NCBI RefSeq assembly: GCF_000026545.1
Contig: NC_011601.1
DNA from: Escherichia coli O127:H6 str. E2348/69
GTDB taxonomy: Bacteria > Pseudomonadota > Gammaproteobacteria > Enterobacterales > Enterobacteriaceae
DNA length: 64,000 nucleotides
Direction: 5' to 3' (one strand)
The stretch's first letter is position 1. Each line of letters opens with the position of its first letter. Shown in pieces: positions 14 to 63,690 of this stretch. The position numbers were made by a program, and so were the translations under genes. The notes under the pieces were generated by a model. The model was not told the DNA's origin, searched no databases, and was given only the letters and a program-made list of their open reading frames with translations.

Positions 14-1227
14 CTAGCTGTAATTGAGCGCCGCGCTCAAATCTTCCGCCAGTCGCGGTGCCATCGACGACAAACGGTTATGCAGCTGAGTAATATCGTC
101 ATAGTTAAACAAATCAGGAATATAGCTGCGCACAATCTTATTCACATGGGTGGCAATTACGCTGGCGCTGTCGATCACCTGATACCCCATATTCAGCGCC
201 TTCGCTTTCTGCGCGGGCTGAATCCAGGTGACCGGCATCCCGTACGCCGGGTCGTTCCCCAGCACGCCGTCTATCTCGCCGTAGGTTTCGCTGGAGGGCA
301 GGGCCATCAGTTTATCTGCCGGAATATCCGCTTCATCAGCCTTAATGCCGTTGATGAAAATGGCGTACTGGCTGGGCTTGAGGCGGAAGTTTTCCCGAAT
401 GCGGATCTCCGGCAGCAGCACGCCGTTGCCGTCAGAAATCACCTGCCGCACGCCGCGAATCCGCTGGGTGAGCGGGTTACCCTGTGCTTTGTCCACCAGC
501 GCCACCAGCTTGTAGCCGAGGCTTAAACTGATGGGCTCGATCAGCGGAATGGTTTCCCAACTGACCTGTTGCTCGCTGGTTTCGGTGATGGTTCGGGTCA
601 GCGTTTCGAGGCTTTTCTCCTCCGCCTCCGCCGCCTGCGGCTGTTTGCTCATCCGCCAGCCGGTAAAGCCAAGCAGGGCGCTGAACAGCAAAAACGGCAG
701 GTGCGGCATCCCCGGCACCACCGCCAGCACAAACATAATTCCGGTAGCGGTGTAGAGCACCGACGGGCTTGCCAGCAACTGGTGGCGCACGTCATGGGCA
801 ATATCGCCATTATCGCTGACGCGGGTGACGATAATCGCCGCTGCGGTGGAGAGCAGCAGGGAAGGGATCTGTGCCACCAGTCCGTCGCCGATGGTCATCA
901 ACACATATTGCTGGAAGGCGGCGTCGGCGCTCAGGTTGTATTTGAAGATCCCGATACAGACGCCGCCGATCAGGTTGATCGCCAGAATCATCATCCCGGC
1001 GATGGCGTCTCCGCGCACAAACTTCGATGCCCCGTCCATCGCACCGTAGAAATCGGCCTCGCTGGCAACATCTTTACGCCGGGTTTGCGCCTGCGCCTGG
1101 TTGATCAATCCGGCGTTAAGATCGGCGTCAATCGCCATCTGTTTGCCGGGCATCGCGTCCAGGGTAAAGCGGGCAGAAACCTCGGAAATACGCTCGGCCC
1201 CTTTGGTGACGACAATAAAGTTGATAG
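14..1227 (-). pseudogene. lfhA: 3' remnant of Flag-2 flagellar export gene (FlhA homolog); N-terminal ~140 codons missing
   Basis: ORF 14..1651(-) matches FlhA from the segment 'IVVTKGAERISEVSARF...GKQMAIDADLNAG...FVRGDAIAG' onward; its first ~142 residues are low-complexity and have no FlhA similarity, so homology starts near nt 1227. Confidence 0.7.
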
Positions 1228-1249
1228 TGAACAGCGTCAGTAAATCCGA

Positions 1250-1991
1250 GCGTGAAAGCATTATCGCCGCGCTGCACGGGCAGTCGATTTTCAATGGCGG
1301 CGGGCTGTCGCCGTTAAATAAAATCAGCCCGACGCATCCGCCGAAACCTGCCACCGTGGCGGTGCCGGAAGAGACGGAGAAAAAAGCGCGCGACGTCAAC
1401 GAGAAAACGGCGCTACTGAAGAAGAAGTCCGCCACTGAGCTTGGCGAGCTGGCGACCAGTATCAACACCATCGTCCGCGATGCGCATATGGAAGCCAATC
1501 TGGAGATGGAGATTGTTCCGCAGGGATTACGCGTGCTGATTAAAGATGACCAGAACCGCAATATGTTTGAACGCGGCAGCGCGAAGATTATGCCGTTCTT
1601 TAAAACGCTGCTGGTGGAACTCGCGCCGGTATTCGACTCGCTCGACAACAAAATTATTATTACCGGGCATACCGATGCGATGGCCTATAAAAGCAATATC
1701 TACAACAACTGGAACCTTTCGGGTGACCGCGCGCTTTCGGCTCGTCGGGTACTGGAAGAGGCCGGGATGCCGGAAGATAAAGTGATGCAGGTGAGCGCAA
1801 TGGCGGACCAGATGCTGCTGGACGCGAAAAATCCGCAAAGTGCGGGTAACCGGCGCATTGAGATTATGGTGCTCACCAAAAGCGCGTCCGATACGTTGTA
1901 TCAATATTTTGGTCAGCATGGGGATAAGGTGGTGCAGCCGCTGGTGAAAAAGCTGGATAAGCAGCAGGTGCTTTCGCACCGAACGCGTTAA
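1250..1991 (+). pseudogene. lafU: MotB/OmpA-like Flag-2 motor protein remnant (LafU/MbhA-like); N-terminal TM region absent
   Basis: ORF 1101..1991(+): the C-terminal part carries a MotB/OmpA-like peptidoglycan-binding region ('IIITGHTD...NWNLSGDRALSARRVL...NRRIEIMV'); the first ~50 residues are the antisense shadow of lfhA. Confidence 0.6.
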
Positions 1992-2061: not shown

Positions 2062-3117
2062 ATGCGTAAAATCATTCATGTGGATATGGACTGCTTTTTC
2101 GCCGCGGTGGAGATGCGCGACAATCCCGCCCTGCGCGATATCCCTATTGCTATTGGCGGCAGCCGCGAACGCCGGGGGGTGATCAGCACCGCCAATTATC
2201 CCGCGCGTAAATTTGGCGTGCGTAGCGCAATGCCAACCGGCATGGCGCTCAAACTGTGTCCGCATCTCACCTTGCTTCCAGGACGCTTTGACGCCTACAA
2301 AGAAGCGTCAAATCATATCCGCGAAATTTTCTCGCGCTATACCTCGCGCATTGAACCGTTATCACTGGATGAAGCCTATCTCGAGGTCACCGATAGTGTG
2401 CATTGCCACGGCTCCGCGACCCTCATCGCCCAGGAAATCCGCCAGACGATTTTCAACGAGCTGCAATTGACGGCATCTGCGGGCGTTGCGCCGGTAAAGT
2501 TTCTCGCCAAAATTGCTTCCGACATGAATAAACCCAACGGTCAGTTTGTGATTACTCCGGCTGAGGTTCCGGCATTTCTGCAAACCTTACCGCTGGCAAA
2601 AATTCCCGGCGTCGGCAAAGTCTCAGCGGCTAAACTGGAAGCTATGGGGCTACGAACCTGCGGTGATGTGCAAAAGTGTGATCTGGTGACTCTGCTCAAA
2701 CGTTTTGGCAAATTTGGCCGCATTTTGTGGGAGCGTAGTCAGGGCATTGACGAGCGCGATGTTAACAGCGAAAGGTTGCGAAAATCCGTCGGTGTAGAAC
2801 GTACGATGGCGGAAGATATTCATCACTGGTCTGAATGTGAAGCGATCATCGAGCGGCTTTACCCTGAACTGGAGCGTCGTTTGGCAAAGGTAAAACCTGA
2901 TTTGCTGATTGCCCGCCAGGGGGTGAAATTAAAGTTCGACGATTTTCAGCAAACTACTCAGGAGCACGTCTGGCCGCGGCTGAATAAATCTGCTCTAATC
3001 GCCACCGCGCGTAAAACCTGGGATGAACGCCGCGGCGGGCGCGGTGTGCGGCTGGTGGGGCTGCATGTGACGTTGCTTGACCCGCAAATGGAAAGACAAC
3101 TGGTGCTGGGATTATGA
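2062..3117 (+). CDS. dinB: DNA polymerase IV (Y-family translesion polymerase)
   Basis: 351 aa, N-terminus 'MRKIIHVDMDCFFAAVEMRDNPALRDIPIAIGG', typical DinB/UmuC family. Confidence 0.95.
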   Translation: MRKIIHVDMDCFFAAVEMRDNPALRDIPIAIGGSRERRGVISTANYPARKFGVRSAMPTGMALKLCPHLTLLPGRFDAYKEASNHIREIFSRYTSRIEPLSLDEAYLEVTDSVHCHGSATLIAQEIRQTIFNELQLTASAGVAPVKFLAKIASDMNKPNGQFVITPAEVPAFLQTLPLAKIPGVGKVSAAKLEAMGLRTCGDVQKCDLVTLLKRFGKFGRILWERSQGIDERDVNSERLRKSVGVERTMAEDIHHWSECEAIIERLYPELERRLAKVKPDLLIARQGVKLKFDDFQQTTQEHVWPRLNKSALIATARKTWDERRGGRGVRLVGLHVTLLDPQMERQLVLGL

Positions 3118-3566
3118 ATAACATACAAATAAGAAACTATCAGCCTGGCGATTTTCAGCAACTATGCGCTATTTTCATTAGAGCGGTTACGATGACCGCC
3201 AGTCAGCATTATTCACCACAACAAATTGCCGCCTGGGCGCAGATTGACGAATCTCGCTGGAAGGAGAAACTCGCGAAATCACAAGTGCGGGTTGCAGTTA
3301 TTAATGCACAACCGGTTGGTTTTATCTCCCGCATTGAACATTATATCGATATGTTATTTGTTGACCCTGAATACACCCTCCGTGGGGTTGCCAGCGCTTT
3401 GTTAAAACCTTTGATTAAGTCTGAATCCGAACTTACGGTGGACGCCAGCATAACCGCAAAACCCTTTTTTGAACGTTATGGTTTTCAGACAGTTAAGCAG
3501 CAGCGCGTTGAATGCCGGGGAGCGTGGTTTACTAATTTTTATATGCGATATAAACCGCAACATTAA
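3114..3566 (+). CDS. yafP: GNAT-family acetyltransferase YafP
   Basis: 150 aa ORF; its ATG overlaps the dinB stop (ATGA at 3114-3117); GNAT-like sequence. Confidence 0.8.
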   Translation: MNNIQIRNYQPGDFQQLCAIFIRAVTMTASQHYSPQQIAAWAQIDESRWKEKLAKSQVRVAVINAQPVGFISRIEHYIDMLFVDPEYTLRGVASALLKPLIKSESELTVDASITAKPFFERYGFQTVKQQRVECRGAWFTNFYMRYKPQH

Positions 3567-3744
3567 ATCCAGCTTGCAAAGAAAATAACGCCCGCCTAGT
3601 ATGTGCGCGTTTTCTTATTCCACAAACTGCAAGGAGGTAAATCATGACAAATCCTTTATCAATGACTCTTTGCAGACCTTTCCAGGATTAATTCTTTTTT
3701 TCTTGCCCTGGATTCGTCTGCCATTTCCTGATTTTTATTCATAA

Positions 3745-4896
3745 ATGGAATGGTACATGGGCAAATATATTCGTCCCTTATCTGATGCGGTACTTACCAT
3801 CGCATCTGATGACCTGTGGATCGAGAGTTCAGCGATCCAACAATTACACACCACGGCAAATTTACCCGACATGCAACGCGTAGTAGGGATGCCAGATTTA
3901 CACCCCGGACGCGGCTATCCGATTGGCGCAGCGTTCTTCTCCGTAGGCCGTTTTTACCCGGCACTGGTCGGCAATGATATCGGCTGCGGTATGGCGCTAT
4001 GGCAAACAGATATTTTCGCGCGCAAATACAACGCCGATAAGTTTGAAAAGCGATTATCAGATCTGGATGACGTTGCTGAAGAAAGCTGGCTGGAGGAAAA
4101 CCTGCCGTCAGCATTTGCACAGCATCCGTGGCGCAGCTCGCTTGGCTCCATCGGTGGCGGTAACCACTTCGCAGAACTGCAACAGATTGATCAAATTATC
4201 GACGCGGAACTGTTTGCACTGGCTGGTCTGGATGCGCAGCATCTGCAACTGCTGGTTCATAGCGGCTCGAGGGGGTTGGGGCAGTCTATTTTACAGCGGC
4301 ATATTGCCTCGTTTTCGCATCATGGTTTGCCGGAAGGCAGTGACGACGCGCTAAGTTATATTGCGGAACATGATGATGCGCTGGCGTTTGCGCGTATTAA
4401 TCGCCAGCTGATCGCTTTGCGCATAATGCAACAAGTTAAGGCCAACGGAAATTCGGTTCTGGATGTGGCGCATAACTTTGTTAGCGCATGTCGAATCGGC
4501 GATCAACAGGGCTGGTTACACCGTAAAGGGGCTACGCCGGATGACAACGGTCTGGTGATTATTCCCGGTTCACGCGGTGATTACTCCTGGCTGGTTAAGC
4601 CTGTTGCGAACGAAAAAACGCTCCACTCGCTGGCGCATGGGGCAGGGCGTAAATGGGGGCGCACCGAGTGTAAAGGGCGTCTGGCAGCGAAATACACGGC
4701 GACGCAACTCTCACGTACTGAACTTGGCAGTCGGGTAATTTGTCGCGATAAACAACTCATCTTTGAAGAAGCGCCACAAGCCTATAAATCGGCTGAAAGT
4801 GTGGTGCAATGTCTGGTGCTGGCTGGGTTAATTATTCCTGTCGCGCGACTGCGTCCGGTGCTGACGCTCAAAAACAGTGGAGGGAAAAAAGGATGA
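3745..4896 (+). CDS. rtcB2: RtcB-family RNA ligase paralog (RtcB2/YkfJ); start may be the Met at 3757
   Basis: 383 aa ORF with an RtcB-like '[10 protein letters not shown]' motif; stop overlaps the prfH start (ATGA at 4893-4896). Confidence 0.8.
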
Positions 4897-5474
4897 TCTT
4901 GCTACAACTCTCCTCAGCTCAGGGGCCGGAAGAATGTTGTCTCGCAGTGAAAAAGGCACTGGACAGGCTGATTAAAGAAGCTGCCCGACAAGACGTCGCG
5001 GTAACGGTGCTGGAAACAGAAACGGGTCGCTACTCTGACACACTACGTTCGGCGCTGGTTTCACTTGATGGCGACAACGCATGGGCTCTAAGCGAAAGCT
5101 GGTGCGGCACTATTCAGTGGATTTGTCCGAGTCCGTATCGGCCTCATCATGGGCGCAAAAACTGGTTTCTGGGCATTGGGCGTTTTACCGCTGATGAGCA
5201 GGAACAATCGGATGCAATCCGTTATGAGACGCTGCGTTCGTCGGGGCCGGGCGGTCAACATGTCAATAAAACCGACTCGGCGGTACGCGCCACGCATCTG
5301 GCATCCGGTATTAGCGTGAAGGTTCAGTCAGAGCGCAGTCAGCATGCTAACAAACGGCTGGCGCGATTACTGATTGCCTGGAAGCTGGAACAACAGCAAC
5401 AGGAAAATAGCGCGGCGCTGAAATCGCAGCGGCGAATGTTCCATCACCAGATTGAACGTGGCAACCCGCGATGA
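4893..5474 (+). CDS. prfH: Peptide chain release factor homolog PrfH (GGQ domain, no codon-recognition domain)
   Basis: Start taken at '[15 protein letters not shown]' inside ORF 4809..5474; contains '[17 protein letters not shown]' (GGQ catalytic motif of class I release factors). Confidence 0.85.
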
Positions 5475-5519
5475 ACGTTTACAGGGATGGCTTTTATCGA
5501 AGGATAATGAAGGATGAAA

Positions 5520-5551
5520 CTGCCGGAAGGCGATTAAACGCCATCCGGCAG
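5520..5551. terminator. Stem-loop between convergent prfH and pepD (likely bidirectional terminator)
   Basis: Inverted repeat CTGCCGGAAGGCG / CGCCATCCGGCAG (13 bp arms, 1 mismatch) with a 6-nt loop, located between two convergent stop codons. Confidence 0.5.
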
Positions 5552-5563
5552 CAAATCAAATAA

Positions 5564-7021
5564 TTACTTCGCCGGAATTTCTTTCAGCAGTTCAGTCAGA
5601 AGCGTCCAGTAATGACCAACGCTTTCGATATGAACTTGCTCATCCGGGGAGTGTGGACCGGTGATGGTTGGCCCGATAGACACCATGTCCATTTCCGGAT
5701 ACGGTTTTTTGAACAGACCACATTCGAGGCCCGCGTGGATAATCTGGATGTTCGGCGTTTTGTTGAACAGACGCTGATAGGTTTCACGTACCAGATGCAT
5801 TACCGGAGAGTTAGCGTCCGGCTGCCAGCCAGGATATGCGCCTTTTGCTTCTGTTTTCGCACCTGCCAGTTTACCCAGTGAATCCAGCATGCTCACTACG
5901 TAGTCTTTACCGCTGTCGATCAGAGAACGGATCAGGCAGTGAATTTCTACGTTATTGTCGGTCATGGTCACCACACCGACGTTCAGGGAGGTTTCGACCA
6001 CACCTTTTGCCACGTCGGAGTTGCGGATCACACCGTTCGGGGTGGCGTTCAGCAGACGAATAAAGGTATCGCGAGATGTCGCCGTTAATGCAGCTTTGTC
6101 GTTCGCTACGGAGTCCAGCAGCAATGCCAGATTCTTCTCTTTTTCTGCCAGTTCGTTTTTCAGGATCTCCTGATAGGTATCCACCAGAGATTTCAGGGCG
6201 TCGACTTTATCAGCTGCGACAGCAATGGTCGCAAAGGCTTCACGCGGGATGGCGTTACGCAGTGTGCCGCCGTTGAAATCAATAAGACGCAGGTCCAGTT
6301 CTTCTGCATGACCCGCCAGGAAGCGCACCAACAGTTTGTTGGCATTACCCAGGCCAACGTGGATTTCACCGCCGGAGTGACCGCCTTTCAGACCTTTTAA
6401 GGTTAACTTGAAGGTTTCAAAACCAGCTGGAACCGCTTCACGATCTAAATGCAGGTTGGAGGTGAAGTCGATACCTCCCGCACAACCCATGTAGATTTCA
6501 CCTTCTTCTTCGGAGTCGGTGTTAATCAGAATATCAGCCTGCAACCAGTTGCTCTGTAAGCCAAAAGCACCGTCCATACCGGCTTCTTCGGTCATGGTCA
6601 GCAGCACTTCCAGCGGGCCGTGAACCACGTTTTCGTCAGCCAGAACCGCCAGTGCAGAGGCCATACCAATGCCGTTATCCGCACCCAGCGTGGTGCCGCG
6701 TGCTTTAACCCATTCGCCATCAATATAAGGCTGGATAGGATCTTTGGTGAAGTCATGCACGGTGTCGTTATTTTTTTGCGGCACCATATCGAGGTGGGCC
6801 TGCAAGACGACCGGTTTACGATTTTCCATACCTGCGGTAGCAGGTTTACGAATCAGGATATTACCTACCTGATCGCGTTCGACATGGAAACCTTTCTCTT
6901 TTGCCCAACCAACAATGTATTCAGCGAGTTGCTCTTCATGATAGGACGGGTGAGGAATAGAACAGATTTTGGCAAAAATATCCCACAGCGGCTGTGGAGA
7001 TAATTGAGACAGTTCAGACAC
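5564..7021 (-). CDS. pepD: Cytosol non-specific dipeptidase (aminoacyl-histidine dipeptidase)
   Basis: 485 aa, 'MSELSQLSPQPLWDIFAKICSIPHPSYHEE', M20-family peptidase. Confidence 0.95.
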   Translation of the reverse strand: MSELSQLSPQPLWDIFAKICSIPHPSYHEEQLAEYIVGWAKEKGFHVERDQVGNILIRKPATAGMENRKPVVLQAHLDMVPQKNNDTVHDFTKDPIQPYIDGEWVKARGTTLGADNGIGMASALAVLADENVVHGPLEVLLTMTEEAGMDGAFGLQSNWLQADILINTDSEEEGEIYMGCAGGIDFTSNLHLDREAVPAGFETFKLTLKGLKGGHSGGEIHVGLGNANKLLVRFLAGHAEELDLRLIDFNGGTLRNAIPREAFATIAVAADKVDALKSLVDTYQEILKNELAEKEKNLALLLDSVANDKAALTATSRDTFIRLLNATPNGVIRNSDVAKGVVETSLNVGVVTMTDNNVEIHCLIRSLIDSGKDYVVSMLDSLGKLAGAKTEAKGAYPGWQPDANSPVMHLVRETYQRLFNKTPNIQIIHAGLECGLFKKPYPEMDMVSIGPTITGPHSPDEQVHIESVGHYWTLLTELLKEIPAK

Positions 7022-13400: not shown

Positions 13401-13476
13401 GCCGATATAGCTCAGTTGGTAGAGCAGCGCATTCGTAATGCGAAGGTCGTAGGTTCGACTCCTATTATCGGCACCA
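13401..13476 (+). tRNA. thrW: tRNA-Thr (anticodon CGU)
   Basis: 76-nt cloverleaf GCCGATATAGCTCAGTTGGTAGAGCAGCGCATTCGTAATGCGAAGGTCGTAGGTTCGACTCCTATTATCGGCACCA; anticodon loop TTCGTAA; T-arm GGTTCGA. Confidence 0.95.
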
Positions 13477-13958: not shown

Positions 13959-14072
13959 TTTCTTATCCAGATCGACCTGTGACCACTCAAGGTCTGTAAC
14001 TGTAGTGGCACACTGAATTTGGCCACCTGAACAGAGGTGATATGCTCACCTCAGAACAACACAGGTGCTCCA

Positions 14073-16624
<2,552 letters not shown>

Positions 16625-18044: not shown

Positions 18045-18057
18045 TGCTTTGAATGAT

Positions 18058-18088
18058 AAAAATGGCGCAAATATAGCGCCATTTTTAT
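18058..18088 (+). terminator. Rho-independent terminator after yagU
   Basis: AAATGGCGC-aaatata-GCGCCATTTTTAT hairpin followed by a T-run, 14 bp after the yagU stop. Confidence 0.6.
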
Positions 18089-18292
18089 AGGTTAAAAACG
18101 TTGCTTTTCATATTCTGATGCGGACAGTAAGTGATCATATCGCGCTACTTCAGGATGATGTAGGTCCGGAGAACGCTACAGAAGAAGAGGCATTGTTGCT
18201 GGAAAATGGAAGAAGTTTCAGGTTTTGTTGTCCCTGAAAAACGAAGCCCCGCTATTACAGCTGGCGGGGCAATGCAATTAATTATTGTATAT

Positions 18293-63402: not shown

Positions 63403-63690
63403 GCCGGATGCGACATGAATGTCTTATCCGGCCTACGAATGGCGCGGAAATCTGTAGGCCTGATAAGCGTGGCGATTCAGGCATTGGCCACCACAGCCGG
63501 ATGCGGCGTGAACGCCTTATCCGGCCTACGAGTGGCGCAAGAATCTGTAGGCCTGATAAGCGTAGCGCATCAGGCATTGGTCACCACAGCCGGATGCGGC
63601 GTGAACGCCTTATCCGGCCTACGAATGGCACGGGAATCTGTAGGCCTGATAAGCATAGCGCATCAGGCAGTCTGGCGTTGGTCATAACCC
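63403..63690. repeat. Cluster of three REP elements (BIME-type intergenic repeat)
   Basis: Three ~99-bp tandem units, each containing GCCGGATGCGGCGTGAACGCCTTATCCGGCCTACG and CTGTAGGCCTGATAAGCGTAGCGCATCAGGC palindromic REP sequences. Confidence 0.9.

Follow-up and report, generated by a model that had tools for sequence, protein, structure and literature searches.

Introduction

The RtcB2-PrfH pair of Escherichia coli, an RNA 3′-phosphate ligase and a release-factor homologue, is the textbook example of how damage done to ribosomes by ribotoxins can be undone, and its mode of action was explained experimentally in 2022. E. coli PrfH (EcPrfH) releases peptide only from 70S ribosomes in which the 16S rRNA has been cut between A1493 and G1494, a 2.55-Å structure revealed that PrfH recognizes the 3′-phosphate of A1493, and EcRtcB2 reseals damaged 30S subunits but not cleaved tRNAs (PMC9304027). 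The pair reverses colicin E3-like toxicity in vivo, with loss of activity in H294N and Q122E variants (PMC9304027). Knockouts in strain ATCC 25922 are sensitized to colicin E3, overexpressed RtcB2 alone is protective (PMC9223846), and PrfH speeds the repair of translating ribosomes (PMC13166195). Here, we describe the corresponding locus in a window of 64,000 nucleotides (nt), the whole stretch of DNA analyzed, from E. coli O127:H6 strain E2348/69 (contig NC_011601.1). Positions 3574 to 5507 of the window very probably represent the E2348/69 copy of this ribosome rescue and repair operon.

A related gene pair has been studied in Pseudomonas aeruginosa, in which PA5471 (ArmZ), an RtcB-like protein of the same PRK09588 family as RtcB2, is cotranscribed with PA5470 (prfH). 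A 13-codon leader, PA5471.1, links the stalling of ribosomes to expression of the genes that follow; drugs that target the ribosome induce armZ, and PA5470 has been reported to relieve macrolide-induced stalling. For E. coli, the K-12 remnant ykfJ has been reported to be inducible by 4-azaleucine, and a 2015 screen ranked the yafP-rtcB2 spacer 98th among riboswitch-like regions. In the literature surveyed, which did not include the 2009 PA5471.1 study, no paper named both "ArmZ" and "RtcB2" and none gave the leader peptide sequence; the RtcB2-PrfH papers mentioned neither a leader nor Pseudomonas nor operon regulation. The analysis described below leads us to a two-part reading, to which we give an even chance: that rtcB2-prfH in E. 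coli and many other Gammaproteobacteria is switched on by a leader that senses stalled or damaged ribosomes, and that E2348/69 is a natural truncation mutant in which rescue is impaired and ligation is intact.

RtcB2 and its junction with PrfH

A 2-kb query around the two genes matched the genome of E2348/69 (O127:H6, enteropathogenic E. coli [EPEC]) at 100% identity (NZ_CP059840.2, 3901148 to 3903144, minus strand). The operon consists of rtcB2 (3757 to 4896, plus strand), which encodes a full-length, 379-amino-acid (aa) RNA 3′-phosphate ligase of the RtcB2 subfamily, and prfH (4893 to 5474, plus strand), 193 codons for a C-terminally truncated release-factor homologue with a GGQ motif and an rRNA-recognition domain. 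The first open reading frame (ORF) spans 3745 to 4896 and the second runs from the ATG at 4893 to 5474. The first-pass annotation of this DNA had begun rtcB2 at 3745, giving a protein of 383 aa, and this start was revised to the conserved ATG at 3757. RefSeq annotates the start at 3757, residue 5 of the 383-aa ORF is the first to align with the NCBIfam equivalog model, and all rtcB2 orthologues begin MG(N/K); the ATG at 3745 is not conserved and is absent from O103:H2 and Citrobacter. Furthermore, the published catalytic residue His294 coincides with H294 only in the 379-aa numbering.

RtcB2 scored 639.6 bits against NCBIfam NF007153 (cutoff, 407) and 618.7 bits against TIGR03073 "release_rtcB" (cutoff, 271.8), and the ORF also matched the Pfam RtcB family. 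Residues D74, C77, N136, H137, H168, H239, and H294, the last of which is the histidine of the motif LAHGAGRK, align with D95, C98, N202, H203, H234, H329, and H404 of Pyrococcus horikoshii RtcB and are invariant among 17 RtcB2 sequences from 15 genera. In the RtcB structural literature, D95, C98, N202, H203, H234, and H329 of the P. horikoshii enzyme are metal and GTP-site residues. The description of a full-length RtcB-family paralog that retains the catalytic histidine and metal ligands was thus upheld, with no lesion in the gene and scores above the curated family cutoffs. Compared with three other E. coli strains, six RtcB2 substitutions are private to E2348/69 (F13L, L25S, N38D, R200S, S232N, and Q246R), all of them in variable columns. 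The private changes in rtcB2 comprise 9 synonymous and 6 nonsynonymous substitutions, and every invariant family residue is kept. Judged from its sequence, RtcB2 is intact in E2348/69.

The rtcB2 stop codon and the prfH start codon share the ATGA at 4893 to 4896, a 4-nt overlap on the same strand that had been noted in the first-pass annotation. A Shine-Dalgarno sequence for prfH, GGAGGG (4879 to 4884, plus strand), lies inside rtcB2, 8 nt upstream of the ATG. The 4-nt overlap was also found in the other E. coli loci (L003 to L005) and in loci L007 to L012, L092 to L095, and L097; the overlap was 1 nt in L096 and L098. From the ATGA and the internal Shine-Dalgarno sequence, we infer that rtcB2 and prfH are translationally coupled.

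A joint function in stalled-ribosome release and rRNA ligation, and protection against colicin E3-type toxins in a comparison of knockout and wild type, had been predicted from the gene pairing; both have already been reported for the same operon in ATCC 25922 (PMC9304027, PMC9223846, and PMC13166195 for the function; PMC9223846 for the protection). In the mechanism demonstrated for the ATCC 25922 proteins, a colicin E3-type nuclease cuts the 16S rRNA between A1493 and G1494 and leaves a stalled 70S ribosome, from which PrfH frees the nascent peptide by means of its GGQ motif, so that the subunits can separate. RtcB2 next reseals the 16S rRNA in the free 30S subunit. As a member of the RtcB family, it would ligate in a GTP- and Mn-dependent reaction via a His294-GMP intermediate. 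In E2348/69, the PrfH-dependent rescue step is probably weakened, and ligation by RtcB2 should remain.

PrfH is truncated in E2348/69

PrfH scored 321.2 bits against TIGR03072 "release_prfH" (cutoff, 166.65), with an alignment covering model positions 1 to 192 of 200, and contains a Pfam RF-1 domain. It matched the PrfH of PDB entry 7SA4 with an E value of 6.5e-128, and residues 1 to 193 differ from chain 8 of that entry by three substitutions (98% identical). The GGQ motif is present, as first annotated, as G120, G121, and Q122, the last being the published catalytic residue. All of the residues reported to contact the ribosome (R52, S53, R83, H85, H86, R88, K89, N90, R181, H184, and R189; contacts with the A1493 3′-phosphate, h18, S12, and H69) are also present. 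PrfH residues 7 to 189 align with residues 116 to 302 of Thermus thermophilus RF2, with PSPY opposite the PSPF "anticodon" tripeptide. The earlier statement that PrfH lacks the codon-recognition domain was inaccurate, because the protein lacks release factor domain 1 and keeps a core of domains 2 and 3 and part of domain 4; the domain 2/4 homologue is retained and remodeled as an rRNA-recognition domain. The original description of PrfH likewise had domain 1 absent and this core kept, and the cryo-electron microscopy study renamed the domain 2/4 homologue the "rRNA-recognition domain" (RRD) and assigned residues 180 to 204 to it (PMC9304027). A peptide-pattern scan of genome contigs with the PrfH alignment returned mostly RF1 and RF2, with true prfH in 11 of the 79 loci listed, none of them enterobacterial; the enterobacterial prfH loci were obtained via exact-protein look-ups.

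The first-pass annotation had described the module as intact and had counted a premature stop as grounds against that description, which for prfH no longer holds. Codon 194 is TGA (5472 to 5474, plus strand), because of a C-to-T change at 5472, whereas other strains have CGA or CGG at this codon (R194*; CGA to TGA). The untranslated remainder, TFTGMAFIEG, continues to a TAA at 5505 to 5507, so that the affected segment covers 5472 to 5507. The last 11 residues are removed, and PrfH is 193 aa long in E2348/69 versus 204 aa in Nissle, O103:H2, strain 500010, and 7SA4 chain 8. A 35-mer centered on T5472 was found in 3 of 5,426 complete E. coli genomes, all E2348/69 or O127:H6, and the version with C was found in 645. 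In a large protein collection, the exact 193-aa PrfH was found on 46 contigs versus 132 contigs for the exact RtcB2. The single base change and these 35-mer and contig counts indicate that R194* is a reproducible, derived mutation that is restricted to one lineage. Strain 500010 has a different PrfH C-terminal tail (FTGMAFVAV).

The segment that is lost is well conserved. Across 48 PrfH sequences with 62 to 97% identity, residue F196 never varies and conservation reaches at least 90% at R194, G198, and F201; of the aligned family members, a single error-rich fragment of 193 aa (P0021) stops short of RTFxG. Even at ∼40% identity, Capnocytophaga PrfH retains the motif RTFxGxxF (as RTFKGTDF). An AlphaFold2 model built from the 48-sequence alignment has a strand at residues 194 to 197 with a predicted local distance difference test (pLDDT) score of ∼90. 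The complete C-terminal RRD segment comprises residues 194 to 204 (RTFxGxxF; model positions 193 to 200); PrfH of E2348/69 ends before it, at R193, and R189, which stacks on A1493, is four residues from the new C terminus. In the predicted structure, the lost segment is the conserved terminal strand of the RRD. On this sequence evidence, we consider it reasonably probable that PrfH function, and with it the rescue step, is impaired in E2348/69.

It is possible, but in our view unlikely, that the module is fully functional in E2348/69 and that the last 11 PrfH residues are dispensable. All of the residues reported as ribosome contacts (to R189) precede residue 193, and the GGQ motif with Q122 is kept. 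RefSeq lists prfH as a normal coding sequence with no pseudogene flag, the TIGR03072 score is high (321 bits against a cutoff of 167), and Klebsiella PrfH is naturally 5 residues shorter (199 aa). These features speak against impairment, and the truncated protein could, on the basis of its sequence, still work. However, the conservation of R194, F196, G198, and F201, the confident prediction of the lost segment as an RRD β-strand, the near absence of family members that end before RTFxG (only P0021), and the confinement of the allele to one lineage argue against dispensability. So does the retention of RTFxGxxF in Bacteroidota PrfH. The PrfH-CT of Capnocytophaga gingivalis (PDB 9MOR and 9MQ4) has the same fold, with the same RTFxGxxF after the long helix, and an extra 26-residue basic tail lets C. 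gingivalis PrfH (CgPrfH) rescue intact ribosomes on truncated mRNA. The active construct CgPrfH-deltaCT ends at the equivalent of F201 in the E. coli protein and retains RTFxGxxF, so that E2348/69 PrfH is shorter than even the tail-less form.

In the mRNA, an A follows the premature UGA (5472 to 5475). Of the stop codons, UGA is the most prone to read-through, so that a small fraction of full-length PrfH could be made in this way.

A further explanation, which we regard as doubtful, is that the operon is decaying in O127:H6, as it has by deletion in K-12 and O157, with prfH a pseudogene and rtcB2 no longer under selection. The nonsense mutation in prfH is as expected from decay, and the module has been deleted from about half of complete E. 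coli genomes, so that its loss is evidently tolerated. However, rtcB2 has no lesion, its private changes (9 synonymous and 6 nonsynonymous) fall in variable columns with the invariant residues kept, and RtcB2 alone is protective when overexpressed (PMC9223846 and PMC13166195). A test for relaxed selection on rtcB2 after the nonsense mutation in prfH gave no sign of decay in these changes.

The decay of both genes in K-12, which the first-pass annotation had mentioned, was confirmed and traced to one deletion of ∼1 kb that spans the gene junction and is equivalent to window positions ∼3964 to 4983. In agreement with the literature, the deletion takes out all of RtcB2 beyond about residue 70 together with the N-terminal ∼30 residues of PrfH. 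The ykfJ/prfH remnants share with E2348/69 the leader, the first ∼69 rtcB2 codons, and the last ∼170 prfH codons at ∼96 to 97% identity; they differ in having a ∼130-nt ERIC-like (enterobacterial repetitive intergenic consensus) insertion in the leader and in keeping the normal 3′ end of prfH. At least 80% of the 2-kb region was present in 2,709 of 5,426 complete E. coli genomes, which is about half.

The truncation of PrfH in this widely used strain is worth recording, as is the leader described below. As the prototype EPEC laboratory strain, it may act as a natural prfH hypomorph in competition involving colicins or contact-dependent growth inhibition (CDI), and its allele offers a ready test of the role of the PrfH C terminus.

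A conserved leader upstream of rtcB2

Between yafP and rtcB2 there is an unannotated leader ORF of 15 codons (MTNPLSMTLCRPFQD; 3644 to 3691, plus strand) with TAA as its stop codon, which ends 65 nt before rtcB2 and is preceded by the Shine-Dalgarno sequence AAGGAGG (3631 to 3637, plus strand). In 15 genera, a leader ORF of 13 to 15 codons occupies this position; the N-terminal half of its peptide varies, and the core, CUUUGCAG(A/G), is fixed. In 14 of the 15 genera that carry the leader, the Shine-Dalgarno sequence has at most one substitution (GCAAAGGAGG); the sequence in Pseudoalteromonas is AAGGGAG. The arrangement is present in Citrobacter, two Klebsiella species, Salmonella, Kosakonia, Enterobacter, and Cronobacter, and also, with other neighboring genes, in Pragia, Entomomonas, Kangiella, Solimonas, Pseudoalteromonas, Pseudomonas asuensis, and Metapseudomonas otitidis. 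In the betaproteobacteria Massilia (L013) and Paucibacter (L015), there is no CUUUGCAG core, and the ORF located ∼170 to 190 nt upstream of rtcB2 is a different one, of 19 codons, which also has a Shine-Dalgarno sequence (MQKLNINALFLGLAGYILH and MQKNTTSLWAGSTVAGLFI, respectively).

The spacer at 3600 to 3740 (141 nt) is at least 99% identical in 5,342 of 5,399 E. coli records, deletion strains included, and the adjacent 141 nt inside rtcB2 reach at least 99% identity in only 42 records. No annotated feature was found in the spacer in the 8 matches listed, and Rfam, searched at both the gathering threshold and an E value of ≤10, gave no plus-strand match in the leader.

Promoter-like elements were read from the sequence at 3574 to 3602 (plus strand), with a −35 hexamer TTGCAA (3574 to 3579), a 17-nt spacer, and a −10 hexamer TAGTAT (3597 to 3602). 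The pattern TTGCA, 17 nt, and TA(G/C)NAT was also found upstream of the leader in Citrobacter, Klebsiella, Salmonella, Kangiella, Solimonas, and Metapseudomonas. We infer that rtcB2-prfH is expressed from its own promoter through the conserved leader. The first spacer base after the −35 hexamer (window position 3580) is A in E2348/69 and T in five other E. coli strains.

Two hairpins are predicted in the leader RNA. Hairpin 1 (3672 to 3721, plus strand), which encloses the leader stop codon, is formed by GCAGAC (3672 to 3677) with GUCUGC (3716 to 3721) and UCCAGG (3681 to 3686) with CCUGGA (3707 to 3712), and it was recovered in the minimum free energy (MFE) fold and independently by RNAalifold. 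Its outer helix is paired 100% in 12 genera, with A-U, G-U, and G-C at one pair and a change from C-G to U-G at another. The covariation score was above all 500 shuffles and all slid controls, a comparison that is inflated because the structure was derived from the same sequences. Hairpin 2 (3722 to 3753, plus strand), formed in the MFE fold by CAUUUC(C) (3722 to 3728) with GGAAUGG (3747 to 3753), lies just upstream of the rtcB2 AUG. When the sequences were compared by eye, an A/U flip in its 3′ arm (GGAAUGG versus GGAUUGG) coincided with a compensating U/A change on the 5′ side in 10 of 10 genera; with the register fixed and without gaps, pairing is limited to 79% of cells, and the compensation appears only if the position of the bulge may move. 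The loop of hairpin 2 (window positions ∼3738 to 3741) carries insertions in some strains: one of ∼130 nt in K-12 (L002, 4173 to 4301), which resembles an ERIC/IRU (intergenic repeat unit) element, and ones of ∼55 nt in O103:H2 (L004, ∼1675 to 1730; likewise ERIC-like) and SCU-109. There is none in E2348/69, Nissle, or 500010.

In Pseudoalteromonas (L017, ∼2612 to 2653), the leader core, CCUUUGCAGGUC, is read in another frame (S-F-A-G, not L-C-R). Because the N-terminal half of the peptide varies, the nucleotide core is fixed, and the frame differs in Pseudoalteromonas, the leader appears to be conserved for its RNA pairing and not for its peptide. By analogy with PA5471.1, expression of rtcB2-prfH probably rises when ribosomes stall on the leader. 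The leaders of Pseudomonas asuensis and Metapseudomonas otitidis are 13 codons long and have the same CUUUGCAGG core as that of E. coli, and the E. coli leader is probably, on these sequences, the counterpart of PA5471.1. In a second homologue search, P. aeruginosa PA5470 was not among the top 120 matches.

Several points weigh against this account of the operon. A consensus scan of 3400 to 5700 gave no sigma-70 promoter and no plus-strand intrinsic terminator, and the promoter-like hexamers score 8 of 12, under the threshold of that scan. When ribosomes were simulated by masking the leader start, middle, or stop in ViennaRNA, the unpaired probability of the rtcB2 initiation region was ∼0.2 to 0.44 in 13 species, with no consistent direction. 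The proposed homology of the E. coli and PA5471.1 leaders rests on the sequences from Pseudomonas asuensis and Metapseudomonas otitidis as intermediates. Finally, the function of the E2348/69 alleles is read from the genes, and the experiments were all performed on ATCC 25922 proteins.

The leader also bears on a different account of the module, in which its main role is a general response to translation inhibition (antibiotics or uncharged tRNA) and not to colicin E3-type cleavage. The conserved PA5471.1-type leader would fit such a role, as would the easing of macrolide stalling by PA5470, the induction of armZ by drugs, and the induction of ykfJ by 4-azaleucine. However, EcPrfH is inactive on intact ribosomes and was not seen bound to them, and EcRtcB2 repairs cleaved 16S rRNA, not cleaved tRNAs (PMC9304027); moreover, MexZ binding by ArmZ is specific to Pseudomonas. 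A general-inhibition role, proposed by analogy with P. aeruginosa ArmZ/PA5470, appears improbable.

If leader-controlled expression of a ribosome repair module is correct, it would join the induction of ArmZ/MexXY in Pseudomonas with RtcB2-PrfH repair in E. coli, which are unconnected in the literature surveyed. The conserved, previously unannotated leader would provide a concrete mechanism for the control of rtcB2-prfH, and it persists in K-12 despite the deletion in the genes themselves.

Genomic neighborhood

In RefSeq, the gene order in this part of the window is an flhA-like pseudogene, lafU, dinB (2062 to 3117), yafP (3114 to 3566), "RNA ligase RtcB family protein," prfH, convergent pepD, gpt, frsA, and crl; dinB lies directly upstream of yafP, which precedes the rtcB2 spacer. 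The order dinB-(yafP)-rtcB2-prfH-convergent pepD is kept in Escherichia, Citrobacter, Klebsiella, Salmonella, Kosakonia, Enterobacter, and Cronobacter. The leader and rtcB2-prfH occur without dinB in Pragia, Entomomonas, Kangiella, Solimonas, and the Pseudomonas relatives, and the genomic contexts in Pragia, Entomomonas, and Metapseudomonas are unrelated. Thus, the adjacency to the dinB-yafP damage-response genes pointed out in the first-pass annotation is real and conserved in Enterobacteriaceae, but a functional tie to these SOS genes is argued against, because promoter-like elements and a leader of its own precede the module, which also occurs elsewhere without dinB. That rtcB2-prfH is the distal part of an SOS-regulated dinB-yafP operon, reached by read-through in a DNA damage response, is very unlikely: the order conserved in seven enterobacterial genera and the lack of a terminator-like site between yafP and rtcB2 in the scan would allow it, but hexamers resembling a promoter are conserved in the spacer, the leader located there brings a strong Shine-Dalgarno sequence of its own, and leader and module travel without dinB in the genera just named.

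The yafN-yafO toxin-antitoxin pair lies between dinB and yafP in K-12 (L002, 2844 to 3538), strain 500010, and SCU-109. It is absent from E2348/69, Nissle, and O103:H2, in which dinB and yafP overlap by ATGA (window positions 3114 to 3117). In strain 500010 (L005, 3503 to 4310), genes for a "metal-dependent hydrolase" and a hypothetical protein are inserted between prfH and pepD, as seen in some E. coli strains; the hydrolase was misclustered with PrfH in a 90% protein cluster. An imperfect GC-rich hairpin (CTGCCGGA...TCCGGCAG) was read from the sequence at 5520 to 5551, between the convergent prfH and pepD genes, and was not scored as a terminator by the scan. No family among the PADLOC-DB anti-phage defense models matched RtcB2 or PrfH.

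Farther from the operon, window positions 14 to 1991 contain the flhA-like pseudogene, which has an internal stop, followed by lafU; we take these to be a remnant of the lateral-flagella (Flag-2) cluster. A 545-aa minus-strand ORF is an artifact of the flhA-like pseudogene. A tRNA-Thr (CGU) gene lies at 13401 to 13476, and fragments of an IS3-family element, an ISEc21 transposase, and integrase remnants lie at ∼14070 to 16290; this tRNA-adjacent region is a degraded insertion site. Rfam matches were obtained for IS009 (190 bits) in the ykgJ-yagU spacer (18050 to 18250) and for two tandem copies of naRNA4, which is derived from repetitive extragenic palindromic (REP) sequences, at 63457 to 63619, near the end of the window.

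Comparison with known systems

The P. aeruginosa operon resembles the E. coli locus in having an RtcB-like gene followed by prfH, with a short leader ORF ahead whose translation status controls expression. It differs in that its leader is located ∼250 bp upstream and acts by transcription termination, whereas the scan found no terminator at the E. coli leader, and in that ArmZ is also the MexZ anti-repressor.

Canonical RtcB (RtcB1 of the rtcBA operon and P. horikoshii RtcB) has the active-site residues and the Pfam family in common with RtcB2. However, RtcB2 makes up a separate subfamily and has ∼100 fewer residues than the archaeal enzyme. Its repair substrate is 16S rRNA and not tRNA, and it cannot be replaced by RtcB1. 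Similarly, RF2 and ArfB share the GGQ domain with PrfH, and the GGQ stretch of PrfH also matches the ArfB model, but PrfH is without domain 1, its domain 2/4 homologue binds cleaved rRNA and not a stop codon, and it does not have an ArfB-like C-terminal tail.

The closest described system is that of E. coli ATCC 25922 (PDB 7SA4; Tian et al. 2022, Maviza et al. 2022 and 2026), which is from the same species and has the same locus, gene order, and ATGA overlap. The RtcB2 numbering and the catalytic residue H294 are identical in the two strains. ATCC 25922 RtcB2 is ∼97% identical to the closest allele compared, that of Nissle, and the Nissle PrfH allele is 100% identical to 7SA4. E2348/69 differs from ATCC 25922 in six private RtcB2 substitutions at variable positions and in a PrfH that stops at residue 193 and not at residue 204 as a result of R194*.

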